Notes under the pieces: model-generated
Database searches by the model: none
Told to the model about the DNA's origin: nothing
The model's input: only the letters and a program-made list of their open reading frames with translations
Translations under genes and position numbers: made by a program
Part shown: positions 1,791 to 27,379 of the stretch, in pieces
Position numbering within the stretch: position 1 is the first letter of the stretch
Layout of the letters: every line of letters starts with the position of its first letter
IMG/VR virus record: IMGVR_UViG_3300027708_000078
Location: 1-61,468 of that record
Reading direction: 5' to 3' (one strand)
Length of the DNA stretch: 61,468 nucleotides
DNA from: a virus
Taxonomy: Duplodnaviria > Caudoviricetes

Positions 1791-1800
1791 AATTTAATAT

Positions 1801-2781: not shown

Positions 2782-2793
2782 AATAATTAATTT

Positions 2794-3789: not shown

Positions 3790-3809
3790 TAAAATTTTAT
3801 AATAAAACT

Positions 3810-4124: not shown

Positions 4125-4166
4125 ACTATTTATTTTTTTAAAGTATTTATTAATAAAATTAATATT

Positions 4167-5951: not shown

Positions 5952-5973
5952 TTTATAAAAAAATATTTTCAAT

Positions 5974-6008
5974 AAACCCTCCACTTTTGCTGGAGGGTTT
6001 TTATTTTT
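5974..6008 (+). terminator. rho-independent terminator
   Basis: AAACCCTCCA-cttttgc-TGGAGGGTTT followed by a T-tract. Confidence 0.8.
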
Positions 6009-6029
6009 ACTTAAAATTATATAATAATT

Positions 6030-7298: not shown

Positions 7299-7301
7299 CA
7301 A

Positions 7302-8027: not shown

Positions 8028-8048
8028 AAGGGATTAGAGAAATTTAAA

Positions 8049-9923: not shown

Positions 9924-9926
9924 ACT

Positions 9927-10898
9927 ATGGTTAAAATTAAGCTTGAATGTTGGTGGACAGATACTTCCTCATTAAATGCAAGAATGATAAGACAATTTGT
10001 TTCGGATGAAGATTTAAAACATTTTTCTTTAGTGAATGAAAATCCTGATTATACAATTGTTTTTGGAAGGACTGATTGGGATAAAATAGAGACTCCAAAA
10101 GAAAAAACTTTTTATATTTCACAAGAACCTTTGTGGTCCCCCAACCAACCAAAAGACGGTATACATAATTACTGTTCAAAAATTTTGATTTCAGATAAAA
10201 GAGATTATCCCGATAGAAATGAATATATTGAAACATTATTACCAATGTTTTATGGAGGTAGTGGGGAAAGTGATAGTAGAGAAGAGTGGGATTGGTCTTT
10301 AAAAATTAAAGACAAAGAGTACATAAAAAATAAACCAATCTCAATTATTGTAAGAAGAGATGGCTCAGTACATTATAATCATTTATCTAATCCAAATACT
10401 TCCGAAATAAATTACCCAAAAAGAACTAATTTAGGCGTAAAATTATCTGAAAATGAAAAAATAGATGTTTTTGGAATTCATTGGATAAATAATGGTAAAA
10501 ATATTAAAGGTGATGTTTGGAATAAGCACGTAGGGTTAGATGAATATTTTTTTTCCGTTGCTTGTGAAAACTCAATACAAAAAAATTATATAAGTGAAAA
10601 ATTTTGGGATACAATATTAACAGAATCAATACCGATATATTTGGGGTGTTCAAATATTACGGATTACATACCATCAAATTGTTTTATCAATTTAAACGGT
10701 ATGACTATTGAAGAAATGGTTAAAACAATTGATGATGTCATTTACAATTATTTAGATTATTATAATTTTTACATAAATAACATTAAAAACTTAAAACAAG
10801 ATTTTTTTAAAAATCCAAAATTTAATTTGTGGGAAAGAATAAAATACGAAATAGAATCTAATGAAAAAAATATTATTAACAATGAAATTTTGGACTGA
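9927..10898 (+). CDS. glycosyltransferase family 10 (alpha-1,3/4-fucosyltransferase-like)
   Basis: YFFSVACENSIQKNYISEKFWD...IPIYLG alpha-1,3-FucT motif; EP motif in the N-terminal half. Confidence 0.8.
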   Translation: MVKIKLECWWTDTSSLNARMIRQFVSDEDLKHFSLVNENPDYTIVFGRTDWDKIETPKEKTFYISQEPLWSPNQPKDGIHNYCSKILISDKRDYPDRNEYIETLLPMFYGGSGESDSREEWDWSLKIKDKEYIKNKPISIIVRRDGSVHYNHLSNPNTSEINYPKRTNLGVKLSENEKIDVFGIHWINNGKNIKGDVWNKHVGLDEYFFSVACENSIQKNYISEKFWDTILTESIPIYLGCSNITDYIPSNCFINLNGMTIEEMVKTIDDVIYNYLDYYNFYINNIKNLKQDFFKNPKFNLWERIKYEIESNEKNIINNEILD

Positions 10899-11583
10899 TG
10901 GTCAAGAAAATTCAACAAGAGTCAGAAATGTAAGTTATACTTGGGAAAAATTAAAAATTTTAAAAAATTTTTTATTAGAAAAAAACATAGACTGTGTTGC
11001 CCATTTATATGATTTTTCACCCGAAAAAATATTAGAAGAATCAATTCATATACCATTTGAATTAGGTTCATATATGAAATCCTCAAAAACAAACAAGATA
11101 ATTGAGTCTAATTTAGATTGTGATTTTATGTTTATGTTTGATTGTGACGCATTTTTTCTTGAGGATGATTTTAATTATTTATGTGAATTAATTAAGAACT
11201 TAGAATCTGGTGATTTTGTTACTTTTGATTTGGCAAAATTAGAAGAAGATGATACGGTATCTGTAATTAAAAATGATTTTGTTGATAAGAATTTTAATTG
11301 GTCATATGCATATTCAGGTAATAAAAATAATGGTCCGTTATGTTGCGGACATAGAGGAGGTTTGGGTGGTGTATATATTTGCGATTTAAATCTTTTAAGA
11401 GACTTAGGAGGATTTAATGAAAAATACGTTGGGTGGGGAGGAGAAGATGGGGATATGATTGACAGAATTACAAGCTCTAATAAAAAATATAGACAAATAC
11501 CAATAAATAAAATAGTACCTTTTCATTTATCACATTTTTATGATTGGTCAAGTGAGAAATATAGTAAAAGATTTAATAGTTAA
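10861..11583 (+). CDS. glycosyltransferase with GT7 C-terminal (galactosyltransferase-like) motif
   Basis: FDCD (DxD) and GGFNEKYVGWGGEDGDMIDR, FHLSH. Confidence 0.75.
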   Translation: MKKILLTMKFWTDGQENSTRVRNVSYTWEKLKILKNFLLEKNIDCVAHLYDFSPEKILEESIHIPFELGSYMKSSKTNKIIESNLDCDFMFMFDCDAFFLEDDFNYLCELIKNLESGDFVTFDLAKLEEDDTVSVIKNDFVDKNFNWSYAYSGNKNNGPLCCGHRGGLGGVYICDLNLLRDLGGFNEKYVGWGGEDGDMIDRITSSNKKYRQIPINKIVPFHLSHFYDWSSEKYSKRFNS

Positions 11584-11586
11584 AAA

Positions 11587-12483
11587 ATGAATAAAAAAAT
11601 AAAATTTATTACTGCAATATATTCTAATTTACACGGGACTGAGATTGGCGGTAGGCCAAGTAGGGGGGGTCATTATAAATGGAGTTTATTATCATTATTA
11701 AAAATGACTGATTCGGATTTTATTTGTTACACATCTGAGGAAGAGTTTGATGATTTATATAATTTTTTTCATATCGAAAATAATGTAGATACTGATAAAT
11801 TACAATTAGTAAAATATAATTTATCCGAGCATTATTTCTTAGAATTATTTAAAAAATATAAAGATATTGAAGGTGCAAAAAGAGGTGACAGGTGTATTGA
11901 AATACAATATATGAAATATATTTGGTTTTTATCTGAAGATATGTCATATGATTATTATTTTTGGATTGATGCAGGATTATCTCATTGTGGTTTAATCCCG
12001 AATAAATATTTAACTGCGGGAGGCCCTCATAATAAGGGATATTATGAAAGTCCGTTATTTAACAATACATTTTTAGATAACTTAATAAAAAACACTGAGG
12101 ATAAATTTACAATAATTGGAAAAGAAAATGATAGGAATTATTGGTCAGGAACCGTAGACCCAAAACATTTTTTTAATTATAATAGAAGCTATCATATAAT
12201 AGGAGGTTTATTCGGAGGAAAAAAAGAATTGTGGAATAATATGTTAGAACTGTTCAAAAAATATGTTTATCAAGTTACAGAAGAAGACGGTAGATTATAT
12301 CACGAAGAAGATATAATGACATTGATTTTTAGAAATCACGAAGATATGTTTAAAATGTATGATTTTGACATTTGGTGGCACGAAAACGAAAGAATTCCTG
12401 GTATTGATAATATGGTTGACTACATCAGTACAAGGAAAAGTTTTTATAAAATTTTAGAAGAATTAAACGGAATTTATGAGTAA
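11587..12483 (+). CDS. HtrL/YibB (WlaTC)-like glycosyltransferase
   Basis: YYFWIDAGL, IIGGLFGG, HEEDIM; paralogous to the N-half of the next gene. Confidence 0.65.
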   Translation: MNKKIKFITAIYSNLHGTEIGGRPSRGGHYKWSLLSLLKMTDSDFICYTSEEEFDDLYNFFHIENNVDTDKLQLVKYNLSEHYFLELFKKYKDIEGAKRGDRCIEIQYMKYIWFLSEDMSYDYYFWIDAGLSHCGLIPNKYLTAGGPHNKGYYESPLFNNTFLDNLIKNTEDKFTIIGKENDRNYWSGTVDPKHFFNYNRSYHIIGGLFGGKKELWNNMLELFKKYVYQVTEEDGRLYHEEDIMTLIFRNHEDMFKMYDFDIWWHENERIPGIDNMVDYISTRKSFYKILEELNGIYE

Positions 12484-14149
12484 AATAACATTAGTAACAG
12501 GTTTATGGGATTTAGGTAGAGGTAATTTGAATGAAGGTTGGAGCCGTTCGTTTGAACAATATTTGGATAAATTCAAACAACTTTTACAAGTTGATGAGAA
12601 TATTATAATATTTGGAGATGAAGAGCTTGCTTCTTTTGTTAAAGAACATAGAGCATCTGAAAATACTCAATTTATTTTAAGACCATTAGATTGGTTCAAA
12701 AATAATGATTATTACCCCTTAATTCAAGACATCAGAAATAATCCTGATTGGTATAATCAGGTAGGTTGGTTGACAGATTCAACTCAAGCGAAACTTGAAA
12801 TGTATAATCCATTGGTTATGTCTAAAATGTTTTTATTGCACGACGCCAAGATTATAGATAGATTTAATTCTGAATATATGTTTTGGATTGATGCGGGTTT
12901 GACAAATACAATCCACCCTGGATATTTTACTCACGACAAAGTTTTAGATAGATTAGAAAAATATATTTCAAAATTTTCTTTTATTTGTTTTCCATATGAC
13001 GCAAACACAGAAATACACGGATTCGAATATAATAAATTAAATTCAATTGCAGGTGATAAAGTTAATAAAGTATCGAGAGGAGGATTTTTTGGTGGACCAA
13101 AAGAATCAATCTCTAATATGAATTCAATATATTATGGGTTGTTATTATCTACATTACGGGAAGGTTATATGGGTACAGAAGAAAGTATTTTCACTATAAT
13201 GACATATAAACATTCGGATTTAATAAATTATTTTGAAATTGAAGGTAACGGATTGATGGGTAAATTTTTTGAAGATTTAAAAAATGATAGTTTAAAAGTT
13301 AAATCCGAAAGTAAAATATCTGTAGAAAACACGTTGGACACAAATAAAGTTGGTCTTTATGTTTTAACATTTAACAGTCCAAATCAATTTAGAACTTTAA
13401 TTAAATCGATGTTGGAATATGATAAAGATTTTATTTTAAAAACTACAAAATTTTTATTAGATAACTCTACAGATGAGACAACATTTAATGAATATTCAGA
13501 ACTTTGTAATGAACACGGATTTGAACACATTAAAAAAGATAATTTAGGTATTTGTGGTGGTAGACAATGGATTGCGGAACATTTTGATAAGACTGATTTA
13601 GACTATTATATTTTTAGTGAGGACGATATGTTCTTTCAACATAAACCAAACGAAACTTGTAGAAATGGTTTTAACAGATACTCACCAAATTTATTTTCAA
13701 ATACTTTACAAATAATTAAAAAAGAAAATTTAGATTTTATAAAATATAATTTTAGTGAATTTTATGGAGATAATAGTACTCAATGGTCGTGGTATAACGT
13801 ACCACAATCCGTTAGAGAACAATTTTGGCCTGAAAAAACTAAGTTACCCCAAATAGGATTAGACCCCAACGCACCTAAAACCAAATTCAATAATATTAAA
13901 ATTCATAATGGTTTACCTTATGCTGATGGTGAAATATACTACTGTAATTGGACTCAATTAATTAGTAGGACGGGAAATAAAAAAATGTTTTTAGATATTA
14001 CTTGGGCTCATCCTTTTGAAAATACGTGGATGTCTCATATGTATCAATTAACTAAGAAGGATGAGTTAAAAGGCGGGTTGTTATTACTTACTCCAGTTGA
14101 ACACAATAGATTTGACCATTATGATGGAAAGTTAAGAAAAGAATCATAA
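12476..14149 (+). CDS. HtrL/YibB-like glycosyltransferase fused to a second GT-A domain
   Basis: TLVTGLWDLGR, FWIDAGL, RGGFFGG, GTEESI; second domain with LDNS, NLGICGGRQ, FSEDD. Confidence 0.7.
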   Translation: MSKITLVTGLWDLGRGNLNEGWSRSFEQYLDKFKQLLQVDENIIIFGDEELASFVKEHRASENTQFILRPLDWFKNNDYYPLIQDIRNNPDWYNQVGWLTDSTQAKLEMYNPLVMSKMFLLHDAKIIDRFNSEYMFWIDAGLTNTIHPGYFTHDKVLDRLEKYISKFSFICFPYDANTEIHGFEYNKLNSIAGDKVNKVSRGGFFGGPKESISNMNSIYYGLLLSTLREGYMGTEESIFTIMTYKHSDLINYFEIEGNGLMGKFFEDLKNDSLKVKSESKISVENTLDTNKVGLYVLTFNSPNQFRTLIKSMLEYDKDFILKTTKFLLDNSTDETTFNEYSELCNEHGFEHIKKDNLGICGGRQWIAEHFDKTDLDYYIFSEDDMFFQHKPNETCRNGFNRYSPNLFSNTLQIIKKENLDFIKYNFSEFYGDNSTQWSWYNVPQSVREQFWPEKTKLPQIGLDPNAPKTKFNNIKIHNGLPYADGEIYYCNWTQLISRTGNKKMFLDITWAHPFENTWMSHMYQLTKKDELKGGLLLLTPVEHNRFDHYDGKLRKES

Positions 14150-14165
14150 CAATATATTTATTGTT

Positions 14166-16085
14166 ATGGAATTTTTTATCAAGAGTGGTGCAAATCTACC
14201 GGCACTTAAAATGCAGGTTATCTCTGACGGACGAAGCGATTTTAAGTCAGTAATAGAAAGTTTAGAGCAATCAAAAGTATTTTTATCTATGGTAGATGTT
14301 ACCACAGGTATAAATAAGATTGCATTAGCACCTTGCGATATTATAACTGAAACAAATCCTGACGGAACTTTAAATTATTTTATTTATTATAAGTTCACCA
14401 CAAAAAATACCAACAAGCCAGGTAGATACAAAGTAGAATTTTTCATACAAAATGTGGAAGGTAATTTAAATTTACCAATTAAAGATACGTTATTTGTTAA
14501 CGTTCAAGAATCTTTTGTTAGTATTGCAAATTGTTGTCCTGATAATACAAGAATAAGATTAAGATTATCGGCATACATTAGTTCTGGTTCTATTAACATT
14601 TTATATGTTTTAGAATCAAATAAAGAACTTCCTGTTGGATTTACATTAAATTTCACAAATACATATGATGTTTTTACGGGTCCTCCTATAGTTGTTTCAA
14701 CGGGTGTTACAATTAGTGCTGGTACTAAGTATGGTGAAACAAATGTTTATTTATCTTCTGAAGATTTTAATAATTTAAAAAGTATTGGTAATTTTTCAAA
14801 TCTAACATTTAATCCAAGTTATATTTCAAATATTTTTGATTTAACGGAACAATCATTTTTTGTTACGGCAACTCCTACTCCTACACCTAGTATTACTCCA
14901 ACATTAACATCTACTCCAACACCAACACCAACTCAAACTGAAGAGGTAATTACAGACGCAATTTTAACTACGGATATTGGTTTAATTTCAGTTGGTCTTG
15001 GATTCTACTTAAAATTTGTGGACTTTGAGCCAGAACAAAATATAACGGACGCAATATTAACAAATGATGGTGAATATATTTTGGTTGGAACCGATATGTA
15101 CTTGAGTTTTATTGACCCAACCCCAAATCCAACTCCAACTCAAACACCCACACAATCTAATACACCTACAAATACTTCTACTAATATTCCTATTAATACT
15201 CCTACACCAACTCCCACACCAACTCAAACAGAACAAGTTATAATTGATGCAATATTAACAAATGATGGTAATTATATTCAAGTTGGGAATGAAATATATT
15301 TAAAATATATTAACCCCACACCTCCACCAACACCAACCCAAACACCTACCAATACTCAAACACCCACAAATACACCTACTCCAAGTATAACTCCAACATT
15401 TACTCCAACCAATACTAAAACTCCAACACCTACACCAACAATAGCATCAATAGTTACAGATGGATTAGTGTTGTATTATGATTTTAGTAATCCTTTTAGT
15501 TATTCGGGAAGTGGAGTTAATATAATTGATTTATCACCTTCTAATAATAATGGAATTGTTGTAAATGATTATGTACATATATCTTATGTTAATTCAGGCA
15601 ACACTAGTTATTTTAATTGGGATAGTAACTCAGGTGGTAGTGGAGGAAATTCATTTGGCGGTAGTATACACACAAGTTCAGCAAATACTTATCAAGATTT
15701 TACTATGGTGTTTCAACCTGACTTTTTGGTGGGTGGAATGGCTGGTTTATTTAGTATTCCAAATGATAAAAGTTTAAGGGTTTATGGTAATGGTTGGGGA
15801 TTTCCAAATCCAGGTAATAACGATGATTGGGCAAGTTCATCAGCAACAAACTTCTATATAAATGGACAAGTAAGTAATCAAGCGGTGTCAGGATGGAATA
15901 TTATGGGTGGAGCAACAACCAATAGTAATTTTGCGGGACTTACCCAATTATACGTCGGTACTAGTGGATATCAAGATAGAAATATGCAAGGTAAGATTGC
16001 ATTAGTATTAATGTATAATAGAGCTTTAACAGGTCAAGAACAAATACAAAACTACAATTTCCTTAAAACTAGGTTTGGATTATGA
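14166..16085 (+). CDS. virion/fibre protein: BppU-like N-terminus, Pro/Thr linkers, C-terminal LamG/ConA-like domain
   Basis: IVTDGLVLYYD...YNRALTGQEQIQNYN..K.RFGL; three PT tracts; three I(T/I)DAILT.D..(Y/L)I.VG...YL repeats. Confidence 0.65.
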   Translation: MEFFIKSGANLPALKMQVISDGRSDFKSVIESLEQSKVFLSMVDVTTGINKIALAPCDIITETNPDGTLNYFIYYKFTTKNTNKPGRYKVEFFIQNVEGNLNLPIKDTLFVNVQESFVSIANCCPDNTRIRLRLSAYISSGSINILYVLESNKELPVGFTLNFTNTYDVFTGPPIVVSTGVTISAGTKYGETNVYLSSEDFNNLKSIGNFSNLTFNPSYISNIFDLTEQSFFVTATPTPTPSITPTLTSTPTPTPTQTEEVITDAILTTDIGLISVGLGFYLKFVDFEPEQNITDAILTNDGEYILVGTDMYLSFIDPTPNPTPTQTPTQSNTPTNTSTNIPINTPTPTPTPTQTEQVIIDAILTNDGNYIQVGNEIYLKYINPTPPPTPTQTPTNTQTPTNTPTPSITPTFTPTNTKTPTPTPTIASIVTDGLVLYYDFSNPFSYSGSGVNIIDLSPSNNNGIVVNDYVHISYVNSGNTSYFNWDSNSGGSGGNSFGGSIHTSSANTYQDFTMVFQPDFLVGGMAGLFSIPNDKSLRVYGNGWGFPNPGNNDDWASSSATNFYINGQVSNQAVSGWNIMGGATTNSNFAGLTQLYVGTSGYQDRNMQGKIALVLMYNRALTGQEQIQNYNFLKTRFGL

Positions 16086-16142
16086 TAATAAAAAAGTAAA
16101 TAATAAAATAATAAGAGATATTTATATAAAAAAAGAAAAATT

Positions 16143-19100
16143 ATGTTAACAGGAAAAACAATAGGACAATTAACTTATTTGGAAACACCGACACCGGATA
16201 CTTTAATACCCGTAGAATTAAACGGTGCAACATATCATATTGACTTCTCCGCAATTACTTCTGGAGGATTTATTGAAGTGACTTACTCTGAACTTGTAGA
16301 TAAAATCACGGGTGAAACATTAACAAAAGGTATTCATTATATCATAACAGATTTTAAAACTTGTTATGATGTTCCCGAATATTATTATAATGGTAATCCA
16401 AAAGATAATGGTGTGATTGATTATATGCAAGGTAATGTTGAACCAATTATTGTTTTATCAACAAGCTCAAATACAATTAGTTCAACCGCGTATCAACAAG
16501 CATATCCAAATGATAGAATCCAATATGATTGGACTTTTAGTGCAACTGAAATAACTCAAGGTGTTGCGTATGGTAGAATTTCTGAAAGAATTGATGAATA
16601 TAACAATAGAACCGATTATGACCACAGAAATATCTATTTTAGTAGATTTCAATCATATAATAAGGGTTCTCAATTAACAGGAACTATAGGTAGTTATGAT
16701 AGTGCAACTGGTATAATATCAGGTAATAGTACATTATTTTTATCAGAAGTTTCAATTGGTGATATATTATTTTTTGAATATCAGGGTTATATGGTTGGTG
16801 TTAGGGTTTTTAGTGCTAGTACTAATACTTTAATATATGTTATTGTTGACCCATCATTTGGAAGTCAAGTAAACTTTACAGGAGGACTTATTCCTTTTTA
16901 TAGCTCAACATCAACAGGTGATTATAACGAATATAAAGAAGTATATATTGGACAAAAAATTGAGGAGGACTTTCAAAGAATCCTAACTTTTAATTTAAAC
17001 GGGACTGCGGTACATAACTATGTTGGTGATTATTCTAAATTTTATCTTGAAGACAATGTCAGTACCCCTATATTTTTATTAGCAAACAACGTGTTTTTTG
17101 GTAGTAACACTTACTCAAACACAATCGGTGATTTGTCTTATAATAATACCGCAACATATTCCTTTTCAAATAATAAAATATCCAATCAATTTTATAATAA
17201 TACAATTCATCAGAATGGTTTTTATAGCAATAATATTGGTCTATTATTTAACAATAATATTGTTTATGGTGAATTATGGAGTAATACAATTGAAGAAAAC
17301 TTTAATTCTAACATAATTTATTCTGAATTTTATGATAATCAAATAGGTTTAAATTTTGAAGAAAATACTATCGGTGACAATAGGAATTTAGGTAATTTTA
17401 ATTTTTATAGAAACAAAATAGGAAATGATTTTCGATATAATATCATTAGACAAAATTTCCAAAATAACCAAATTGGTAATCAATTTAACAATAACTTCGC
17501 TAATGGTAATTTTTATAAAAATGTTATTGGAAACGGATTTAATTATAACCGTAATATTGGGTATGATTTTTATGGTAACCACATTGGTAATGGGTTTAAT
17601 AATAATGAATTAATTGGAGATTATTTTCACGACAATCAAATCGGTGAATATTTTGAATATAATAGTATTTCATATAAATTTAATAATAACCAAATTGGTA
17701 ATATTTTTGAAAATAATACTTTAGGTGACACTCAATATTTTAATTGGAATAATACAAGTATTGAAAATTTAACGGCAAGAACTTATAACACATTTTATAA
17801 TTCATTATATGGTGATGGTGGACAAAACGTTGGTAATGTTATTTTAGGTAAGGAACTTATAATGCATTTTTATCGTGATTCAGGTACAACATTAACAAGT
17901 GGTTATTTGGTGGTTGGTGAGACATATGAAATAACAAACGTAGCGTTTGGCGGTGGTGATTTCAGTAATGTCGCCGATGTTCAAAGCGGAACTATTAATC
18001 AAAATGGTTGTATTTTCATCGCAACAGGAACTACACCAAGTAGTTGGTGTGGAATAACAGTAACCGAATTAACCGTTTATAATGAATATCACAAAGTTAA
18101 ATTCACACAATGGACTCAAGGTGGTAATGGTGGTGGTTTTTCGTATGAGAGAACAAAGGTATATCCGACATCGGAACCAACTTTTTATTTTACAAAATTA
18201 AATTACCAAGATATAATTGATATAGTTGTTCCTAGTCGTCTTGAAATAACCAGAAATAATAATGGGGCGATTTATAATGATGTAATAGAAAATGGATGGA
18301 ATCAAAACGTTTCGCCTGAAGGAACTCAATGGAACTCAATTTATACTCAACAATATAATGGTAGTAATTTTAAATATAATACAATTGTCAATGAATTTAA
18401 GGGTAACTATATTCGTGGCGATTTTCAATTAAATTCAATTGAGTCGTATGTTGGTACTAATCAATTTTCTGGTGATACATATCAGAATAAAATTGGTTCG
18501 TATACCTTTGGTAATGACTTTTTGGGTTATATGTTTAATAACTCGTGGATGGGTAGTTTTGATAATAATACCTTTGGATATAATTTAAATGCCAACACAT
18601 TTGGTTCGTCAATTAGCAATAACACAATTGGTTATGATTTCATTAATAATGAAATTAAATCTGATTTTGATAATAATACAATTGGTAATGGTTTTCAAAC
18701 TAATCAAATTGGTAGTAGTTTTACTAACAATACTATTGATGATAATTTTGGTTATGGGGTTTCATACCCACAAGGAAATAAAATAGGTAATAATTTTTAT
18801 AACAATACTGTTGGTGAATATTTCTACAATAACTCTATCCCTGATAATTTTATAGATAACACAATTGATAATTATTTCCAATGGAATATTGTTAACACAG
18901 CAATTAGTGGTGTTTGTTTAAGTACTGGTGCGTTATATCATAATACAACAGTTAATGTATTTAAAAATAAAAATGGTGATAATAGATTATCATATTATGA
19001 TGAATCTGATGTTCTAACAGTAGAAACATTAAATGAAGCGCCTTGTTTAAGTGGATTAAATGCGTTAGATATACCAGAAAATGATTTAAATTTTGGATTG

Positions 19101-19574
19101 GTGTTAAATTCCTCATTTACAGTATATTCTACAGATATTGTAAGTTATGGACAAGGAACTAATATAACGGCAAATGGAACAAGTGGGTTTGATTCAGGTC
19201 CATCTCAAACAGGTGTCGGTAATCAAGAGTATATTATTCAGGATAATATGAGTCAAAGATTAAAAGATGAAATACTTGGTTTATTTATTAGTGAAGGTTT
19301 ATCAACAAATAGTACGGGATATGTCTTTGATGTTACTTGGGGACCAGGTAGTACAATTACAAATGGTAAAGCGATGATAGGTTATTATTGGAATGGTGGA
19401 ACAAATTATGGTAATATACAACTTTCTCCTATTAGTACCGCCAATAATGATTGGATGACATCAGGACAAAATATGTTCACATCACCATTAGCGGCAGTTG
19501 GGACATTTAATTTTCCTGCAACATTTACTTTGTATAAACCAATAATTTCAAACCCAAGCAATTGGTATTGTTAA
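16143..19574 (+). CDS. large tail fibre/spike protein with Asn-rich beta-helix repeats
   Basis: Two long tracts of ~10-aa N.IG..F..N repeats; EVTYSEL...HYIITDF N-terminal fibre motif. Confidence 0.65.
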   Translation: MLTGKTIGQLTYLETPTPDTLIPVELNGATYHIDFSAITSGGFIEVTYSELVDKITGETLTKGIHYIITDFKTCYDVPEYYYNGNPKDNGVIDYMQGNVEPIIVLSTSSNTISSTAYQQAYPNDRIQYDWTFSATEITQGVAYGRISERIDEYNNRTDYDHRNIYFSRFQSYNKGSQLTGTIGSYDSATGIISGNSTLFLSEVSIGDILFFEYQGYMVGVRVFSASTNTLIYVIVDPSFGSQVNFTGGLIPFYSSTSTGDYNEYKEVYIGQKIEEDFQRILTFNLNGTAVHNYVGDYSKFYLEDNVSTPIFLLANNVFFGSNTYSNTIGDLSYNNTATYSFSNNKISNQFYNNTIHQNGFYSNNIGLLFNNNIVYGELWSNTIEENFNSNIIYSEFYDNQIGLNFEENTIGDNRNLGNFNFYRNKIGNDFRYNIIRQNFQNNQIGNQFNNNFANGNFYKNVIGNGFNYNRNIGYDFYGNHIGNGFNNNELIGDYFHDNQIGEYFEYNSISYKFNNNQIGNIFENNTLGDTQYFNWNNTSIENLTARTYNTFYNSLYGDGGQNVGNVILGKELIMHFYRDSGTTLTSGYLVVGETYEITNVAFGGGDFSNVADVQSGTINQNGCIFIATGTTPSSWCGITVTELTVYNEYHKVKFTQWTQGGNGGGFSYERTKVYPTSEPTFYFTKLNYQDIIDIVVPSRLEITRNNNGAIYNDVIENGWNQNVSPEGTQWNSIYTQQYNGSNFKYNTIVNEFKGNYIRGDFQLNSIESYVGTNQFSGDTYQNKIGSYTFGNDFLGYMFNNSWMGSFDNNTFGYNLNANTFGSSISNNTIGYDFINNEIKSDFDNNTIGNGFQTNQIGSSFTNNTIDDNFGYGVSYPQGNKIGNNFYNNTVGEYFYNNSIPDNFIDNTIDNYFQWNIVNTAISGVCLSTGALYHNTTVNVFKNKNGDNRLSYYDESDVLTVETLNEAPCLSGLNALDIPENDLNFGLVLNSSFTVYSTDIVSYGQGTNITANGTSGFDSGPSQTGVGNQEYIIQDNMSQRLKDEILGLFISEGLSTNSTGYVFDVTWGPGSTITNGKAMIGYYWNGGTNYGNIQLSPISTANNDWMTSGQNMFTSPLAAVGTFNFPATFTLYKPIISNPSNWYC

Positions 19575-19578
19575 TAAA

Positions 19579-20250
19579 ATGATTATTCATAGGTTACATA
19601 ATACAAGAGGGAATATTAAAGCGAGTTGGATTAATTCGTATAGGACATTTAGTTTTCCTTCATATTATGATGCTAATTATATGAATTTTGGTGACTTACA
19701 AACCATTAATGATGATAGGGTTCAACCTGGAGGACACGTACCGATACACGAGCACAAAAATATGGAAATATTTGGTTATGTGGTAGAAGGTGTTTGTAGA
19801 CATACTGATAGTCACGGAAAGGTATTAGATATACCATCAGGTGCAGTACAAAGAATGAGTACAGGACGAGGAATAAAACACACAGAAGGTAATGCTTCGG
19901 ACACTCCAAATCGTTATCTCCAACTATGGATTAAACCAAATGTGTTTGATACTGAACCAATACACGAATGGCATCAGTTTACAAGGGAAGATAAGTTAAA
20001 TAAATTTTGTGATATAACTGAAAAATTACCAATTAAACAAGACGCTAAATTATTATCGGGAATATTTACTGAAGATTTTACATTTGAACTTAATAACACA
20101 CGTAGATATTATCTATATGTCGTTTTGGGAGAAACAAATGTAAATAATCATTCATTAATTGAAGGTGATGGTTTAAGTTTTACAAATGAAGATAAAATTG
20201 AGATTCAATCAATAAATGAATCTGAAATAATACTATTTGATTTACAATAA
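19579..20250 (+). CDS. pirin family protein (YhhW/quercetinase-like)
   Basis: TFSF..YYD, INDDRV, H.HKNMEI, H.DSHG, VQRMSTGRGIKHTE, LQLWI. Confidence 0.9.
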   Translation: MIIHRLHNTRGNIKASWINSYRTFSFPSYYDANYMNFGDLQTINDDRVQPGGHVPIHEHKNMEIFGYVVEGVCRHTDSHGKVLDIPSGAVQRMSTGRGIKHTEGNASDTPNRYLQLWIKPNVFDTEPIHEWHQFTREDKLNKFCDITEKLPIKQDAKLLSGIFTEDFTFELNNTRRYYLYVVLGETNVNNHSLIEGDGLSFTNEDKIEIQSINESEIILFDLQ

Positions 20251-20272
20251 ATAAAAATAAAAAAATAAAAAA

Positions 20273-21349
20273 ATGATACAAGGAATTAGATTAACAAGTT
20301 CAAATTTATCAGGTAAAACAGCTGATGTAATTTTCAACCCCTCAACAGGTGGTACAATTAATTTAGGTACACAAACCATACCATTTAACAATATTAGTGA
20401 TTACCCATACGGTACTTATGAATTATCAGTTGTGGAATATGATAGAACATATGAAATAAATGTACCTGCACCATTAGATGGACAAAGTGCTTACACTCTT
20501 ACTGTGAGAGGTGTAACAGTAGATGGCGGCGTTCAACCATTTTCAGGCGCGGTATTATCTGAAGTATGGGGAACATATACAACACAATATATTACAGATG
20601 AAGGTATACCATCAACAGATATTGTTTATGCTCAAGGTATTTGTTCTGATGATGTTGATGCCCCAAAAGTACAAGCAAATATTGGTGGATGGCCAAATAG
20701 TATTAATTCATTTTTAGGACCATTTCAATCGGGTGGTTTGGCTGGATATCCATTTGTCGGTAGTGTTGGTTTTGGAGCATTTGCAAGTCACGTAGCAACA
20801 ACATCTGGTGGAACCTTATTTGTTACAAGTATGCCACATATTGGTGTTACTGAAGAAGGTAGTTCAGGTAGAATGTTACGTAGAGGTAAAGCCGATAGTA
20901 CAAACGATAATACTTGTGGTGCAGTATGGGGAGCAATTAACCAAGTTGTAAATGTATTAAGTGCACCCCCAAGTCAAAGTAATCCGCCATTTGATAATGG
21001 TAATTATTCTTTTTGGAAATTAACAGATATTTTATGGCCGTATAAATCAACCTTAACAGGTTTTACAGGTACTGCCGAACAAATATATAACAAACAAATG
21101 ATATTTGCAACAGAAACTATTAGGGATTCTGCATATGATTATATAATAGCGAATTTACCAGGTGCAACCGAAGCAAACACAGAAAATGATGTGTATTTTT
21201 TAAGTGGTATTTTTATTAATAGTGATGTTAGTGCGGGTACAACACAATATGAATCTTATGTTGTTGTTGATAAAGTTATGAAATATGTGTTTGAGGACCA
21301 ATGGTATGATATAACAGATAATTATAAGGCAGGATTACCAATTGACTAA
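20273..21349 (+). CDS. LCIB/LCIC-like (theta-class) carbonic anhydrase domain with extra N-terminal beta-rich domain
   Basis: CSDD (C124), GGLAGYPFVG..GFGAFASHV, PHIG (H189), GRMLRRG, CGA (C215), matching the Cys-His-Cys Zn ligand pattern of the family. Confidence 0.75.
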   Translation: MIQGIRLTSSNLSGKTADVIFNPSTGGTINLGTQTIPFNNISDYPYGTYELSVVEYDRTYEINVPAPLDGQSAYTLTVRGVTVDGGVQPFSGAVLSEVWGTYTTQYITDEGIPSTDIVYAQGICSDDVDAPKVQANIGGWPNSINSFLGPFQSGGLAGYPFVGSVGFGAFASHVATTSGGTLFVTSMPHIGVTEEGSSGRMLRRGKADSTNDNTCGAVWGAINQVVNVLSAPPSQSNPPFDNGNYSFWKLTDILWPYKSTLTGFTGTAEQIYNKQMIFATETIRDSAYDYIIANLPGATEANTENDVYFLSGIFINSDVSAGTTQYESYVVVDKVMKYVFEDQWYDITDNYKAGLPID

Positions 21350-21367
21350 AATTAAAAAATAACAATT

Positions 21368-21634
21368 ATGAGAATTTGTATATTATGTGAAGAATCAAAG
21401 GTTCTTCAAGCAAGAGAAAAAATGAAAAATAATAATATCTTAAAAATAGATTTATCGCCAACTGGAGAATTGCCTGCAACACATAAATTATGTGTTATGG
21501 CAGTTACCGAAGAAAAGGCCAAACAACTTATGGATTCTGCCGAATTAACAATAATTGAGGCGATGAACCCAAGTGAATTTTTAACAAAACATAATCTAAA
21601 AAAAATCGGTAAATACGGATTTGGAAACTTGTAA
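21368..21634 (+). CDS. hypothetical protein
   Basis: 88-aa ORF in operon context, overlaps the next gene. Confidence 0.6.
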   Translation: MRICILCEESKVLQAREKMKNNNILKIDLSPTGELPATHKLCVMAVTEEKAKQLMDSAELTIIEAMNPSEFLTKHNLKKIGKYGFGNL

Positions 21635-22241
21635 GATAAAAAAAAATTTCATCACACAAGATGAGGCAAACCAAATAGTAAATTGGTTAGATTCTGTTAA
21701 TCATACAGGTAGTGATAGTAATCACCATCTTACAGAATTATCTAAATCTCTAAATGGTGTATCTTATATGTTTGATATTTCAAACACACCTTTAACAAAT
21801 TATATTACAAAATTCCAATCAATATCTGATGTATCAAAAGAGGGTTTGCCCTCTTTTATTTTTAACATAATAGATAGAATATCAGAAGAATTTAATTTTC
21901 CAAAAGATAATGTTTTTCTTCAAGCTGTTGATATGAATAAAGGAGGAAAAATAAATCCCCATTATGACGCATCAATAGATGGATATGTTAATTATAAGTG
22001 TAATATTAGTGTATTATCAGAAGATTATGATTTTTATGTGGATAAAGATTCAGTTAAAATACAAAAAACTGATTTATACGGATTTGAGGCGTCTTTATAC
22101 AAACATTGGACAAACGAATTTAATTCAAGAAGAGTTTTTTTAAGTTTTGGGTTTTTATTAAAATATGAAGATGTGGGTAGAGATATGAATGACCCAAGAG
22201 TTAGGTTAAGTAAAAGAATTGAGAAATACTTTCAAAAATAA
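21621..22241 (+). CDS. 2OG-Fe(II) oxygenase superfamily protein
   Basis: N-terminal KNFIT.DE, GGKINPHYD (HxD), distal H (YKHW), R.F.SFG; TTG start. Confidence 0.75.
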   Translation: METCKIKKNFITQDEANQIVNWLDSVNHTGSDSNHHLTELSKSLNGVSYMFDISNTPLTNYITKFQSISDVSKEGLPSFIFNIIDRISEEFNFPKDNVFLQAVDMNKGGKINPHYDASIDGYVNYKCNISVLSEDYDFYVDKDSVKIQKTDLYGFEASLYKHWTNEFNSRRVFLSFGFLLKYEDVGRDMNDPRVRLSKRIEKYFQK

Positions 22242-22262
22242 AATATTTATAAAAAAAAGAAA

Positions 22263-23498
22263 ATGGCAACAAAATACATTGTAAATGATTTAACAGGACA
22301 AACCATAACGGGTAATTTAACAATTAATGGTAATATAATTGTTACTGGTTCATCAAATAATAGTGGTGTCTATAGGGCATTATTAACTCAAACAGGTTCT
22401 ATTAGTGGTACCACTATAAATACTTTTTATGATGGTTTGATTATTGGTGAAACATATACAATCTCAACGTATAATACAGGTGATGACTTTAGCAATATTG
22501 CAAATATCATAAGTGGTGGAACTCTTATGGATTTTGATTATGTTTGGACCTCATCAGCAGTGCCTTATTCGGGTTTTAATGGTCTTACAGGAACAACAAG
22601 TGGTTCGGGTAGTGGAGCCTCTTTTAATGCTTATTGGTGTGGAGCAACAAATACTCACGTTTATCTTCTAACTAGTGGGGTTGATTACGTCGTAGGAGAT
22701 ACAATAACAATATTAGGAACTGAACTTAGTGGTAATACACCTGAAAATGATATGGTAATTACGGTTACTGAGGTTAATCCCAATGTAACAGGTTGTGTGT
22801 TTATAGCAACAGGTGATACACCATCGGTTTGGTCACATTCTTCTCTATTGGTATCTGATGGTGGTTTGATTGTTGATGTACAAGAAAATACTCTTGGTTA
22901 TGACTTATATTGGCAATTGGGGCTTTTTGGTGGTTATGGTACTTATACTGCGTTTAATAATACTACGGGTTCTGTGTATAACGCTTTTAAAAGAGATAAA
23001 GTAGAAGTAACTACAACAAATACATATGCTTTTGATAATGGTCCTGGGCTTCCAGCATTTATTGTACCGTATGTTTCGAATTCATTTGCTAAAGATGATA
23101 GTATTGCTATAGATACGCTTTATGTAGGTGGTGGACCTGGTGGTTATTCGAATGATTTGTTATACTATACACCAGTTGAAATTAAAATTAAACAAGACTT
23201 GGATACAACACCTGTAGAGATATACGGTGAGATAGGCCCATCATTTCCTTTTTCTTATGTGTATACTAATTTATATTGTAGTGGACGTTTTATACAAGAT
23301 TTTTATGCTGCTAATCAATCGACTGTTAATAATATATCTGAATTAATAACATTATTAAATAATGATATTAATAATGTATATGGATTAGTTTATTCTGAAG
23401 GTGGCCCTGGTGGAATTCAGGTGACTATGCCAACAAGCCTTAAAAATCAATTTTGCGCTAATGGTACACTAACATTTATTATTTATAGCGATGATTAA
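22263..23498 (+). CDS. hypothetical virion/fibre-associated protein
   Basis: T/G/S-rich, QTITGNLTINGN fibre motif; shares a module with the 16143 protein; TATTTAT upstream. Confidence 0.55.
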   Translation: MATKYIVNDLTGQTITGNLTINGNIIVTGSSNNSGVYRALLTQTGSISGTTINTFYDGLIIGETYTISTYNTGDDFSNIANIISGGTLMDFDYVWTSSAVPYSGFNGLTGTTSGSGSGASFNAYWCGATNTHVYLLTSGVDYVVGDTITILGTELSGNTPENDMVITVTEVNPNVTGCVFIATGDTPSVWSHSSLLVSDGGLIVDVQENTLGYDLYWQLGLFGGYGTYTAFNNTTGSVYNAFKRDKVEVTTTNTYAFDNGPGLPAFIVPYVSNSFAKDDSIAIDTLYVGGGPGGYSNDLLYYTPVEIKIKQDLDTTPVEIYGEIGPSFPFSYVYTNLYCSGRFIQDFYAANQSTVNNISELITLLNNDINNVYGLVYSEGGPGGIQVTMPTSLKNQFCANGTLTFIIYSDD

Positions 23499-23864: not shown

Positions 23865-26627
23865 ATGATAGACAGTCAAGAAATTGAATCGTTCCTCCAC
23901 GGAAACGACCCAGAAGAATTTATTGTTGCACTTGAATACGACTACGCTTCAGAGTGCATTTACAAAATCAAAGAAATCCCCGGTAAAGGTAAAGAGATTA
24001 GAAAAGACACGTTCATCCCGTTTGCGTGGGTTGGTGATTTACGTGGTATGAAGTTCTATAATGATTCCAAGGCATTACAAAAAGAGGCGATGTCTAAATA
24101 CGGAATTACTATAGATAAATTAGAAACGGGTGATAATGAAAGAATGAAAAATGGTTTAACTTATATGGTTAAATCACTTAAAGGTTATAGAGCATTATCC
24201 CAATTTTTCCGTGATGGCGGAATAGACCCCTATGGAGAGAAAGGAAAAGAAAAAATACTTATCCTCCCCCCTATTGAGCAGTATCTAATACAAAAAGAAA
24301 AAAGATTATTCAAAGGTTTTGAAGATTATAATGAAGTCACAAGACTTGTATTTGACTTGGAGACAACATCACTTGAACCCAAAGATGGTAGAATCTTTAT
24401 GATTGGAATTAAAACCAATAAGGGTTACCACAGGGTTATTGAGTGTATTGATGAGTCACAAGAGAGAGGTGCAATCATAGAATTTTTTAAAGTTATAGAT
24501 GAATTAAAACCAAGTATAATTGGTGGTTATAACTCCGCAAACTTTGACTGGCATTGGATATTTGAAAGATGTAAAATCTTGGGACTTGATGCTAAAAAGA
24601 TTTGTAAATCTCTTAACCCCGCAAATTCATTCACAAGAAAAGAAAGTATGTTAAAACTTGCAAATGAGGTTGAGGAGTATACTCAAACGTCAATTTGGGG
24701 TTATAATGTTATTGATATTATTCATGCTGTTCGTAGAGCACAGGCTATTAATTCAAGTATCAAATCCGCAGGACTTAAATATATTACCAAATTTATTAAG
24801 GCAGAAGCTGCAGACCGAGTTTACATCGAACACACAGATATTGGAAAGATGTACACCCAAAAGGAAGAGTATTGGTTAAACGTACAAAATGGTAACTACA
24901 AAAAAGCTTCCGAGTATCAAGATTTAGATGTTAAATTCCCTGGTGTATATAAAAAAATAACAGGTGATAAGATTGTTGAGATGTATCTTGATGATGATTT
25001 GGACGAAACATTAAAGGTAGACCAAGAGTACAATCAAGGTTCTTTCTTACTTGCGTCTATGATTCCAACTTCCTATGAGAGAGTTTCAACTATGGGTACT
25101 GCAACGTTATGGAAAATGTTGATGCTTGCTTGGAGTTATAAGAACGGACTTGCAATTCCCGAGAAAGAAAAGAAAACAGATTTTGTGGGAGGACTTTCAA
25201 GATTGTTAAAAGTAGGTTATTCAAAGAATGTTTTGAAACTTGACTTTAGTTCTCTTTATCCTTCAATCCAACTTGTTCACGATGTATTCCCCGAATGTGA
25301 TATTACAGGTGCGATGAAAGGAATGTTAAAATATTTCCGTGACACCCGTATCAAATACAAACAACTTGCCGAACAGCATTATGAAACCGATAAAAAAAAG
25401 TCGGAGTCGTATGGTAATAAACAACTTCCAATTAAAATTTTCATCAACTCAAAATTTGGTGCTTTATCGGCACCACAAGTATATGCGTGGGGTGATATGA
25501 ATTGTGGAGAACAAATTACCTGTACTGGTAGACAATATCTTCGTCAGATGTTAAAGTTTTTTTCAAAAAAAGGATATACCGCACTTGTTTGTGATACAGA
25601 TGGTATGAACTTCTCAATACCTGAAGGTGTTGAAGAAAGAGTGTATATTGGTAAAGGACTTAATTGGAAAGTTAAAGAAGGTAAAGAGTATAAAGGGTAT
25701 TACGCTGATGTTGCAGAATTTAATGATTTATTTCAAAGAGGGGAAATGGCGTTAGATTGCGACGGGACTTGGGATAGTTGTATTAATCTTGCAAGAAAGA
25801 ATTATGCGGTTATGGAATCTAATGGCAAAATTAAACTTACAGGTAATTCAATTAAATCTAAAAAATTGCCTCTTTATATTGAGGACTTCTTGGATGTGGC
25901 GGTTAAACTTTTACTTGAAGGTAAAGGAAAAGAGTTTGTTGAGTATTATTATGTCTACTTACAAAAGATATATGATAAACAAATTCCACTTATGAAAATC
26001 GCACAGAGAGCGAAAGTAAAACTCACGATGGAGGATTATAAGAAAAGGTCAACACAGAAAACAAAGGCGGGTGGTGCGATGTCTATGATGGCGCATATGG
26101 AACTTGCCCTTCAAAATAAATTAAATGTTAATCTTGGCGATGTAATATATTATGTTAATAATGGGGTTAAGGCATCAAATGGAGATGTTCAAAAAATAAC
26201 CAAACCAACAAAGAAATTACAAGAAGAATATATGTTGACCCACGGAAAACCAATTCCTGAAGGTTATGTTCAAATCAATTGTTATATGTTAGAACAAAGT
26301 AAGATTGAATCAAATCCAAATATGACGGGTGAATATAATGTACCAAGAGCAATTACAACCTTCAATAAAAGAATCGAACCTCTCCTTATTTGTTTTGGAC
26401 AAGAGGTTAGAGATGGATTACTTGTTGATGAACCAAAAGACAGAGGAATATTTACAACTCAACAATGTGAACTCATAAATGGTGTCCCGTTTGAACCTGA
26501 AGACCAAGATAATGTTGAAGATTTATTAACAATAACAGATTCGGAGATATTGTTTTGGGATAGAGTTGGGTTAAGCCCAAACTACATTTATGATTTAGCG
26601 GAACCAGGGTGGGAAAAATTTATGTAA
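23865..26627 (+). CDS. family B DNA polymerase
   Basis: ExoI FDLET, ExoII GYNSANFD, motif A DFSSLYPS, motif B K.FINS.FG, motif C DTDG. Confidence 0.95.
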   Translation: MIDSQEIESFLHGNDPEEFIVALEYDYASECIYKIKEIPGKGKEIRKDTFIPFAWVGDLRGMKFYNDSKALQKEAMSKYGITIDKLETGDNERMKNGLTYMVKSLKGYRALSQFFRDGGIDPYGEKGKEKILILPPIEQYLIQKEKRLFKGFEDYNEVTRLVFDLETTSLEPKDGRIFMIGIKTNKGYHRVIECIDESQERGAIIEFFKVIDELKPSIIGGYNSANFDWHWIFERCKILGLDAKKICKSLNPANSFTRKESMLKLANEVEEYTQTSIWGYNVIDIIHAVRRAQAINSSIKSAGLKYITKFIKAEAADRVYIEHTDIGKMYTQKEEYWLNVQNGNYKKASEYQDLDVKFPGVYKKITGDKIVEMYLDDDLDETLKVDQEYNQGSFLLASMIPTSYERVSTMGTATLWKMLMLAWSYKNGLAIPEKEKKTDFVGGLSRLLKVGYSKNVLKLDFSSLYPSIQLVHDVFPECDITGAMKGMLKYFRDTRIKYKQLAEQHYETDKKKSESYGNKQLPIKIFINSKFGALSAPQVYAWGDMNCGEQITCTGRQYLRQMLKFFSKKGYTALVCDTDGMNFSIPEGVEERVYIGKGLNWKVKEGKEYKGYYADVAEFNDLFQRGEMALDCDGTWDSCINLARKNYAVMESNGKIKLTGNSIKSKKLPLYIEDFLDVAVKLLLEGKGKEFVEYYYVYLQKIYDKQIPLMKIAQRAKVKLTMEDYKKRSTQKTKAGGAMSMMAHMELALQNKLNVNLGDVIYYVNNGVKASNGDVQKITKPTKKLQEEYMLTHGKPIPEGYVQINCYMLEQSKIESNPNMTGEYNVPRAITTFNKRIEPLLICFGQEVRDGLLVDEPKDRGIFTTQQCELINGVPFEPEDQDNVEDLLTITDSEILFWDRVGLSPNYIYDLAEPGWEKFM

Positions 26628-26664: not shown

Positions 26665-26823
26665 ATGGGAAGACCTAAAAAAAACAAAGAAGAAAAAAAA
26701 ATTAAGGTTAGTATTAGTCTTGATAGAGTTTTGTACAATAAAATAAAAGAGGAAAAAATAATGCCTTCCCGTATGATAGAAAAATTAGTTAGAGAATATT
26801 ATGGAAACAAAAATTTGTTGTAG
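26665..26823 (+). CDS. small ribbon-helix-helix-like DNA-binding protein (52 aa, not in ORF track)
   Basis: MGRPKKNKEEKKIKVSISLDRVLYNKIKEEKIMPSRMIEKLVREYYGNKNLL; overlaps the HNH start. Confidence 0.65.
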   Translation: MGRPKKNKEEKKIKVSISLDRVLYNKIKEEKIMPSRMIEKLVREYYGNKNLL

Positions 26824-27379
26824 GTGTAACTTAGAAAAAAAATATTCAGATTTTAATATTTCAAAAAGAAATAAATCCGGATTGAGGGGTGAGTGTAGAG
26901 ATTGCCAAAAATTAACCTATTCGAATAATTCGGAATATTACAAAGAAAAAAGAAAAAAAAGATATTCCGAAAACCCAAAAAAAGAGTTAATTCGTAATAA
27001 AAAATATTATGAACATAAAAAACCTCAAATAATTGAAAATTTAAAAAATAAAAAGAGAGTTGATGAAATGTTGAGAGTTTCTTCTAATTTACGTAGTAGG
27101 ATATCACAATTTGTTAAATCAAATAAAATTCAAAAAGACAATAAAACTTTAGTTATGTTAGGTATTGATTTACCTAATTTTAAAAAATATCTTGAAGGAC
27201 AATTTAAACCGGGAATGTGCTGGGAAAATTATGGTGAATGGCATATAGACCATATTATCCCTTTATATTACGCCAAAACTACTGAAGATTTAAATAAACT
27301 TTGTTATTACACAAATTTACAACCGCTATGGGGTTTTGAAAATTCTTCTAAAAGAAACAAGTTAATTAGGATTGTTTGA
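26801..27379 (+). CDS. HNH homing endonuclease with N-terminal Cys motif
   Basis: KICCRC...ECRDC; WENYGEWHIDHIIPL...YTNLQPLW..EN..K. Confidence 0.85.
   Translation: METKICCRCNLEKKYSDFNISKRNKSGLRGECRDCQKLTYSNNSEYYKEKRKKRYSENPKKELIRNKKYYEHKKPQIIENLKNKKRVDEMLRVSSNLRSRISQFVKSNKIQKDNKTLVMLGIDLPNFKKYLEGQFKPGMCWENYGEWHIDHIIPLYYAKTTEDLNKLCYYTNLQPLWGFENSSKRNKLIRIV

Follow-up and report, generated by a model that had tools for sequence, protein, structure and literature searches.

Viral members of the LCIB/theta carbonic anhydrase family carry exchangeable N-terminal modules that may tether them to the phage particle

The window analyzed here, 61,468 nucleotides long, is an entire IMG/VR virus record (IMGVR_UViG_3300027708_000078; Duplodnaviria, Caudoviricetes), which CheckV rates as 20% complete, implying a myovirus genome of roughly 300 kb. 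Its gene at positions 20273..21349 encodes a protein of 358 residues with two parts, a β-rich N-terminal module and a C-terminal domain of the LCIB/theta class of carbonic anhydrases (CAs). An initial annotation had delimited this open reading frame (ORF) from the letters of the DNA, and both its boundaries and its ATG start are borne out exactly. The six motifs listed there are each present once, namely CSDD at residue 124, GGLAGYPFVG at 154, GFGAFASHV at 166, PHIG at 188, RRG at 203 and CGA at 215, and the putative zinc ligands C124, H189 and C215 are intact at the positions given for them.

The relationship of the C-terminal part to the LCIB family, which had been proposed from the order of these motifs, was recovered by both profile and structure searches. 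The Pfam model LCIB_C_CA (PF18599) matches residues 104-333 far beyond chance (E 9.8e-30; 103.9 bits against a cut-off of 25), with the match spanning profile positions 12-217 of 223 (206 of the 223 positions), and the same span was recovered with 105 bits in a six-frame search of the genome. At E <= 0.01, phmmer searches against the PDB retrieved LCIB-family proteins only, including 6kfs (1.5e-14), 9vzj (6.4e-11), PtLCIB4 (1.3e-10) and Chlamydomonas LCIB (2.6e-3); PHROG and NCBIfam scans of the 358-residue protein returned no family. An AlphaFold (AF2) model of the whole protein, built from an alignment of 30 rows, has a mean predicted local distance difference test score (pLDDT) of 85.9. In a Foldseek comparison of this model with the PDB, LCIB-family chains fill the first eight places (E 2.9e-15 to 2.1e-7; target-normalised template-modelling (TM) scores of 0.66-0.83), with PtLCIB4 at E 2.9e-15 and TM 0.81-0.83, and the model also superposes on 6kfs. 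Canonical β-CAs rank only after these chains (E 4e-4 to 1e-2; TM 0.40-0.56), and the Pfam matches at E <= 1 include no β-CA family. We therefore considered, and rejected, assignment to the canonical Pro_CA type of β-CA: that class is marked by the motifs C-x-D-x-R and H-x-x-C, whereas the window protein reads C124-S-D-D-V, lacking the Arg at +4, and has a spacing of 26 residues between H189 and C215. Its fold is akin to that of the canonical β-CAs, and it is not a member of that class; membership in the LCIB/theta family is secure.

Alignment with PtLCIB4 of the diatom Phaeodactylum tricornutum pairs C124 with C46, S125 with S47, D126 with D48, A130 with R52, H173 with H88, H189 with H102 and C215 with C126. 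The numbering of PtLCIB4 was anchored by the mutant chains in the PDB, S47R ('LCRDEVTRP' versus 'LCSDEVTRP') and H88A, and C46, H102 and C126 are the residues that we take to be its zinc ligands, the offset having been cross-checked via these mutant chains only. The two proteins share the zinc-ligand positions, the Asp two residues after the first Cys (D126), the equivalent of His88 and the RRG motif (R203-R204-G205); both the window protein and wild-type PtLCIB4 have Ser after the first Cys, where the S47R mutant has Arg. All 30 sequences in an alignment of relatives reaching down to 25% identity share C124, D126, D127, H173, H189, R203 and C215, and S125, A130 and R204 join this invariant set when the 24 orthologues are considered (24 of 24). 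Relative to the solved LCIB structures (PtLCIB4 and PtLCIB3, and Chlamydomonas LCIB and LCIC; 5b5y, 6kfs, 5k5w, 5b5x), which belong to the same Pfam family and fold, the window protein shows about 20% identity over the fold and has 'TCGA' where they have 'CCG'. Among the mapped active-site positions, Ala130 in place of the Arg of 'CSDEVTRP' is the only difference from the solved eukaryotic proteins; this Arg is also missing from the bacterial-type members of the 30-relative alignment, so it is not a defining feature of the family as a whole. The C-terminal 255 residues look like a divergent and catalytically intact member of the LCIB/theta-CAs, with a β-CA fold and a Cys-His-Cys site. CA activity has been stated for diatom and bacterial LCIB homologues in a preprint (10.1101/2021.03.04.433933). 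Interconversion of CO2 and bicarbonate is probably the chemistry of the viral domain.

The window protein belongs to a large group of viral relatives. One homologue search yielded 216 proteins, the best 120 of which are all 77-100% identical to it, 340-363 residues long and PF18599-positive, so that the count at this level of identity is at least 120 clusters. Among 1.84 billion cluster representatives there were 838 matches at E <= 0.001 and 18 at <= 1e-30. Close homologues lie on contigs of up to 320 kb, 21 close loci were found in IMG/VR, and with the alignment as query 141 IMG/VR contigs proved to encode relatives, the 80 that were kept spanning 38% to 89% identity. Four viral LCIB proteins compared by tblastn with 50,697 GenBank phage records found no match. 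The earlier remark that such genes are not typical of phages thus holds for the phages in GenBank; it does not hold as a statement of rarity, given the 141 contigs with relatives.

A maximum-likelihood tree of the domain was computed from 44 rows: viral contigs supplied 17 and bacterial genomes 8, the other 19 being metagenomic sequences of unknown origin, and algal and diatom rows were left out. It separates the 17 viral and 11 of the metagenomic rows from the 8 bacterial and 8 other metagenomic rows with 100/100 support, and a quick tree agrees. As the tree is unrooted this is a split and not proof of a single origin, and the viral sequences appear in it as a well-separated virus-side clade of the LCIB family. 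Selection was gauged on 24 intact orthologous ORFs of 356-363 residues (median dS about 0.5-0.7; a 25th locus, L005, was left out). The median pairwise dN/dS, the ratio of nonsynonymous to synonymous substitution rates (Nei-Gojobori), is 0.235 for residues 1-70, 0.167 for 71-103, 0.194 for 104-333 and 0.208 overall; these low values in all segments indicate that both parts of the protein are maintained by purifying selection.

The N-terminal part had been described as a separate β-rich segment, and it is one by two lines of evidence. Modelled alone with AF2 from 47 aligned rows it forms a six-stranded β-sandwich (pLDDT 79.7), and the six strands, lying within residues 4-64, are present in both AlphaFold models; the linker and lead-in helix that follow (residues ~71-103) have a pLDDT of 88-93 in the model of the whole protein. 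When residues 3-75 alone were searched against the cluster representatives, they matched dozens of otherwise unrelated proteins of 110-785 residues, starting from residue 2-3 of each. The 65-residue module is thus a shared one that always sits at the extreme N-terminus of its carriers. Among 20 module-bearing proteins that were scanned, one has a lectin-like Laminin_G_3 domain, one is a short LCIB fragment, and several have a Pro/Thr-rich linker straight after the module; beyond the linker and lectin matches, PHROG and Pfam gave nothing for the 19-20 proteins. A further family of about 690 residues bearing the module occurs on contigs of up to 332 kb. The module is present in three copies in the related record G001 and in six in G005, a relative of 272 kb that is 91% complete. 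Four of the latter stand in tandem between the genes for the large terminase and a T4-type portal: they begin two proteins of 803 and 744 residues packed with leucine-rich repeats of the DUF285 type (782 and 785 bits with Pfam), a stub of 69 residues and a Pro/Thr-rich protein of 1040 residues. A fifth copy, in a protein of 355 residues, lies among other DUF285 giants. The presence of the same module on adhesin-like, Pro/Thr-rich and lectin-like proteins favours the view that the proteins bearing it are attached to something. Its best matches by VIA-align, which are in the noise range, are type-IX-secretion C-terminal domains, DUF3244 and FN3 domains, and the ESM Atlas gave no usable match. 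A suspicion that the N-terminal modules of three viral LCIB loci (L094, L083 and L093) are known tail-fibre N-termini was dropped for want of a GenBank phage match: the modules of L094, L083 and the window found none by tblastn in the 50,697 records.

Comparable additions are found throughout the viral branch. In each of the 11 viral ORFs scanned the Pfam domain starts at residue 46-158, as against residue 12-31 in each of the 8 bacterial ones, and at least six types of N-terminus, unrelated to one another, can be told apart among the viral proteins; every viral copy examined has an exchangeable N-terminal add-on. The exchange is best seen in a pair of loci, L093 (gene at 5656-7116) and L094 (5710-6798), whose LCIB proteins are 88% identical from residue 26 onward and have unrelated first 25 residues. 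The first 30 residues of the L094 protein recur at the start of the gene that follows the LCIB gene in L093 (65% identity; E 4e-16), which marks a recent swap of a short N-terminal tag. A different elaboration is seen in the 776-residue viral LCIB protein of L073 (5653-7980), with about 130 residues before and 400 after the domain, neither part matching any family.

The gene context in these distant lineages was examined with a PHROG scan, in which the LCIB gene lies inside a virion module in 5 of 9 viral loci. It stands between the head-tail adaptor and the tail sheath, tube and hub genes in L081, after the portal and major head protein genes and before a 'virion structural protein' in L086 and L091, and between the major head protein and the adaptor in L093 and L094. 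In L064 a 'virion structural protein' match adjoins it, the context of L073 and L089 was uninformative, and four other loci (L083, L084, L088, L097) have patterns of ORF lengths, the feature compared in them, like those of L081 or L086. In L080 two carbamoyltransferase genes lie upstream and a polymerase gene downstream; the former, in the stretch 933-5891, are Nol-like (560 and 1090 residues; 1.5e-124 and 6.8e-119) and directly 5' of the LCIB gene. Within the window's own lineage, a search of four records found no carbamoyltransferase gene.

Table 1. Features at and around the LCIB gene, in coordinates of the window
Feature	Coordinates	Strand	Remarks
Whole gene, two-part protein of 358 residues	20273..21349	+	ATG start; anchor-like N-terminal module and predicted LCIB-type zinc enzyme domain
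N-terminal module, residues 1 to ~70	20273..20485	+	predicted six-stranded β-sandwich, common to many other proteins
Linker and lead-in helix, residues ~71-103	20486..20581	+	conserved 'QSAYT.TVR', ahead of the Pfam domain in viral copies
LCIB_C_CA domain, residues 104-333	20582..21271	+	holds C124, S125, D126, H173, H189, R203 and C215
Pirin-family bicupin	19579..20250	+	directly upstream; Pirin 1.9e-23, Pirin_C_2 1.8e-16
Two large repeat-rich, Pro/Thr-rich fibre-like ORFs (639 and 1143 residues)	14166..19574	+	upstream
ORF of 639 residues	14166-16085	+	phrog_8510 'virion structural protein' 2.1e-7; sub-threshold Laminin_G_3 match (E 0.0017)
ORF of 1143 residues	16143-19574	+	no family; in 16 of 21 loci a relative of it lies close to the LCIB gene
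Three downstream ORFs (88, 206 and 411 residues)	21368..23498	+	no family or solved relative; order and presence vary among relatives
Family B DNA polymerase	23865..26627	+	Pfam, PHROG; usual downstream landmark, in 17 of 21 related loci

In the window itself the surroundings of the gene are more mixed than its earlier placement among fibre genes suggested. The large flanking ORFs are indeed repeat-rich or Pro/Thr-rich, the 411-residue ORF at 22263-23498 included, but family support exists only for the ORF at 14166-16085, and the immediate neighbours are the Pirin-family cupin and two small ORFs of no family. Three proposals about these neighbours were discarded. The Pirin gene is no conserved partner, since just two of the 21 related loci (L002, L005) have it upstream of the LCIB gene; a conserved small partner downstream was not found either, as the ORFs of 77-120 residues that follow the LCIB gene in other lineages are unrelated to the window's 88-residue ORF; and the ORF at 21621-22241, tried as an Fe/2-oxoglutarate oxygenase on account of an H-x-D-like motif, had no support from Pfam, NCBIfam or the PDB.

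Over most of its length the window has a G+C content of about 30%. By Pfam and PHROG it encodes a tail sheath, tail tube, baseplate hub and head-tail adaptor, together with a family B polymerase, gp32-like and UvsX-like proteins, an SNF2 helicase and a run of glycosyltransferases; tRNA and Rfam searches of it found none. The polymerase is only 22-27% identical to any GenBank phage polymerase, which points to an uncultured lineage of jumbo myoviruses. Several other features of the window are worth recording: 1) Three tandem Gly_rich_2 paralogues (329, 326 and 331 residues; PHROG 'tail fiber assembly / minor tail protein') occupy positions 801-3789, a stretch with a G+C fraction of 0.43-0.47 against about 0.30 elsewhere. 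2) At least six glycosyltransferase-type genes and a methyltransferase-like gene lie at 6030-14149, directly 5' of the Pro/Thr-rich ORFs, and this run may mean that virion proteins are glycosylated. 3) Within the ORF at 14166-16085, contigs from DNA and RNA libraries join across parts of the repeats 265 bp and 486 bp long, with many loose ends (14900-15450); such joins across Pro/Thr-rich repeats suggest repeat-number variants or relatives in the population. 4) The tail sheath gene (32910-36131) is unusually long, at 1073 residues, with the sheath-family match only in the last ~300. 5) Two giant ORFs of 1659 and 2164 residues (40408-45387 and 45700-52194) lie 3' of the baseplate hub gene and have no Pfam or PHROG family. 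6) Two endonuclease-VII/HNH-like paralogues and a NUMOD3 homing-endonuclease-like gene (26801-27379, 57491-58108, 54802-55419) stand among the replication genes.

Cellular relatives were sought with a narrower alignment, in a pattern-dependent scan that is no census. It gave 28 loci with 28-48% identity in the best segment, mostly from Bacteroidota (Runella, Dyadobacter, Spirosoma, Hymenobacter, Chitinophaga, Fluviicola), with some from Acidobacteriota and Methylobacter; the window protein alone found no relative among species-representative genomes, which in a scan of this pattern-dependent kind is weak evidence. The bacterial proteins, of 240-266 residues and devoid of any add-on, are the closest cellular sequences found: those of Runella, Dyadobacter, Hymenobacter, Spirosoma, Chitinophaga and Methylobacter share the catalytic residues of the phage protein, as well as the form 'CSDD[VIL]N' without the eukaryote-type Arg. 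They differ in context, as a gene for a bestrophin-family anion channel adjoins the LCIB gene in 3 of the 8 bacterial loci examined (Dyadobacter arcticus, L123:3907-5633; Hymenobacter polaris, L126:4890-6711; H. rubidus, L129:3945-5702) and such a neighbour is absent from the phage. Bestrophins conduct bicarbonate in the algal mechanism, and if they do so here, the bacterial relatives would handle inorganic carbon too. Genes for response regulators or SpoIIE-type phosphatases are often nearby in the Dyadobacter and Hymenobacter bestrophin loci.

Four public sequencing runs that contain at least half of the words sampled from a 3.9-kb stretch come from freshwater or lake water in four studies, one of them possibly being the source sample. 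In three libraries labelled as metatranscriptomes, from three studies, there are contigs identical to parts of the gene, with carry-over of DNA a possibility in each: X6 matches at 20216-20480 and 21024-21396, X17 at 20279-20483, and X2 covers all 30 bins of an 18-kb stretch. We suspect a heterotrophic Bacteroidota host, no single hint being decisive. The hints comprise an SprB-repeat protein with a signal peptide on a related contig (L021:3663-5447; compare window 4167-5951, L130 and L131), the many DUF285 proteins, A-rich spacers ahead of the LCIB start in which no Shine-Dalgarno-like sequence is seen, and the best fold matches of the N-terminal module, which are to type-IX-secretion C-terminal domains but weak and in the noise range (Z about 6).

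The reading that we prefer joins these observations as follows. The enzyme domain would be a catalytically intact LCIB/theta-CA interconverting CO2 and bicarbonate, which in the viral clade always stands behind an exchangeable N-terminal add-on. Add-ons that are at once universal and exchangeable are best explained as addressing the protein to a place; the N-terminal module would then be a docking domain, and the enzyme one of several cargoes received by a common site. That site would most probably be on the virion, the other cargoes being the proteins with DUF285 repeats, Pro/Thr linkers or lectin-like domains whose genes lie in the head and fibre regions, and it is the sharing of the module with such adhesin-like and lectin-like proteins that suggests the particle. 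Judged from sequence and predicted structure, the reading as a whole, in which a CO2/bicarbonate enzyme that is probably active is held by a shared anchor, the virion being its probable site, has in our estimate an even chance of being right. We infer both CA activity and tethering, and that the destination of the add-on is the virus particle we would put slightly below even.

Several observations count against this reading. At the chemical end, the position of PtLCIB4 R52 ('CSDEVTRP') is Ala in all 24 orthologues, and the viral clade scores only 85-116 bits on PF18599 as against 182-264 for bacterial members and is set apart by a long branch (1.25 + 0.57 changes per site), so that a change of substrate is conceivable. 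Moreover, Chlamydomonas LCIB is described as lacking quantified in vitro activity in a review (PMC9614477), which means that CA activity does not follow automatically from family membership. At the anchoring end, the window has a single copy of the module and no second was found; Pfam and PHROG place neither the module nor the whole protein in a virion-anchor family; Foldseek finds no match for the module in the PDB or BFVD at E <= 0.001; and its best VIA-align Z of 6.2 falls within the tool's stated range of common arrangements. The accessory gene PhoH also lies inside structural modules of these phages, so gene position is weak evidence, and attachment to the virion would rest on association.

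The serious rival is a soluble auxiliary enzyme working inside the infected cell, which would speed the equilibration of CO2 and bicarbonate for bicarbonate-dependent steps, or for pH buffering, in the biosynthesis run by a 300-kb phage. It would feed carboxylations leading to carbamoyl phosphate, purines and fatty acids, while the N-terminal module would serve assembly, regulation or intracellular localisation. An intact and selected active site is what such a helper would show, and enzymes of this kind have viral precedent in the α-, β- and γ-class CAs reported as auxiliary genes on virus contigs in a preprint (10.64898/2026.01.21.700432). The gene contexts are divided: the L080 gene follows the two Nol-like carbamoyltransferase genes and precedes a polymerase gene, the window gene is near a small enzyme (Pirin) and 2.5 kb from PolB, and PhoH-type accessory genes share the structural modules, yet the searched records of the window's own lineage have the carbamoyltransferase genes in 0 of 4 cases. 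A soluble role moreover leaves unexplained why an add-on is present on every viral copy and missing from bacterial ones, why add-ons are swapped between near-identical enzymes, and why the add-on is common to leucine-rich-repeat, Pro/Thr-rich and lectin-like proteins. We consider it unlikely on balance, though well worth keeping in view. The same add-ons could also belong to an LCIB fold that has been repurposed while keeping its metal site, as a receptor-binding head or as an enzyme acting on another small substrate or a group of the host envelope, and would then form an alternative tip in a multi-fibre adsorption apparatus. Other hydrolases, CS2 and COS hydrolases among them, have arisen within the β-CA fold, and the viral clade's long branch and low scores against the family profile, an architecture typical of receptor-binding proteins (N-terminus conserved and exchangeable, distal domains variable) and the positions adjoining adaptor, sheath or capsid genes all fit. 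However, the invariant residues are the catalytic set shared with active PtLCIB4 and the bacterial members, the domain shows no relaxed selection (dN/dS 0.19) and there is no candidate ligand; this makes repurposing improbable.

The familiar role of the family suggests one more alternative, namely that the protein boosts the CO2-concentrating mechanism of a photosynthetic host, a cyanobacterium or alga, as LCIB does in algae. This would suit the lake-water habitat and the role of LCIB in the CO2-concentrating mechanism of algae and diatoms (PMC7215798). However, psbA was detected in none of five related records, one of them 91% complete, in a search whose control was positive for Synechococcus, and no photosynthesis or carboxysome family was found among the 43 window proteins scanned. 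Together with the mostly heterotrophic Bacteroidota among the cellular relatives, the absence of psbA makes such a role unlikely; the G+C content of about 30% and the low identity, 22-27%, between the polymerase and those of cultured phages also speak against it, and we regard this alternative as very improbable.

Several known systems can be compared with the phage protein. The algal and diatom LCIB proteins lack the extra N-terminal part of 100 residues, and their setting is the plastid rather than a virus; the phage protein has no link to a pyrenoid or thylakoid. Modular phage surface proteins, such as multi-fibre receptor-binding proteins and decoration proteins like T5 pb10, combine a shared virion-binding N-terminus with variable distal domains. 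The proteins described here resemble them in that a conserved N-terminal module starts paralogues with unrelated distal domains, in the tandem arrangement of paralogues and in the swapping of N-termini. They differ in that the distal domain is a predicted metalloenzyme for a small molecule, where the known proteins have a binding or depolymerase domain, and in that the N-terminal module has no sequence match or significant structural match to any known anchor. The previously reported viral CA genes likewise lie on virus contigs but belong to the α-, β- and γ-classes, and in the available part of that preprint (10.64898/2026.01.21.700432) 'LCIB' occurs 0 times and neither an N-terminal anchor module nor a structural-module context is described. 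A literature search among open-access papers and bioRxiv found no report of LCIB-type genes in viruses. What is new is the viral LCIB clade with its modular N-termini and structural-module context; the family itself was known.

The LCIB/theta family has been known from the CO2-concentrating mechanisms of algae and diatoms and from a few bacterial homologues, and the existence of a large, selected viral branch in lake phages of likely heterotrophic hosts raises the question of what such phages gain from equilibrating CO2 and bicarbonate. One tentative answer, which we offer as a possibility short of likely, is that there are phage particles with a working CA on their surface, the virus-specific LCIB branch being a plug-in cargo that different freshwater myovirus lineages mount on N-terminal anchors of their own, alongside adhesin-like cargoes. 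If so, the particle-borne enzyme would work extracellularly, at the surface of the host, for instance by shifting local CO2, bicarbonate and pH during adsorption; alternatively, it would be delivered with the particle and act at the very start of infection. An enzyme of this kind on the particle would represent a new class of virion-borne activity, and the exchangeable N-terminal modules look like a general docking system by which an enzyme, a leucine-rich-repeat adhesin or a lectin may be carried as cargo.

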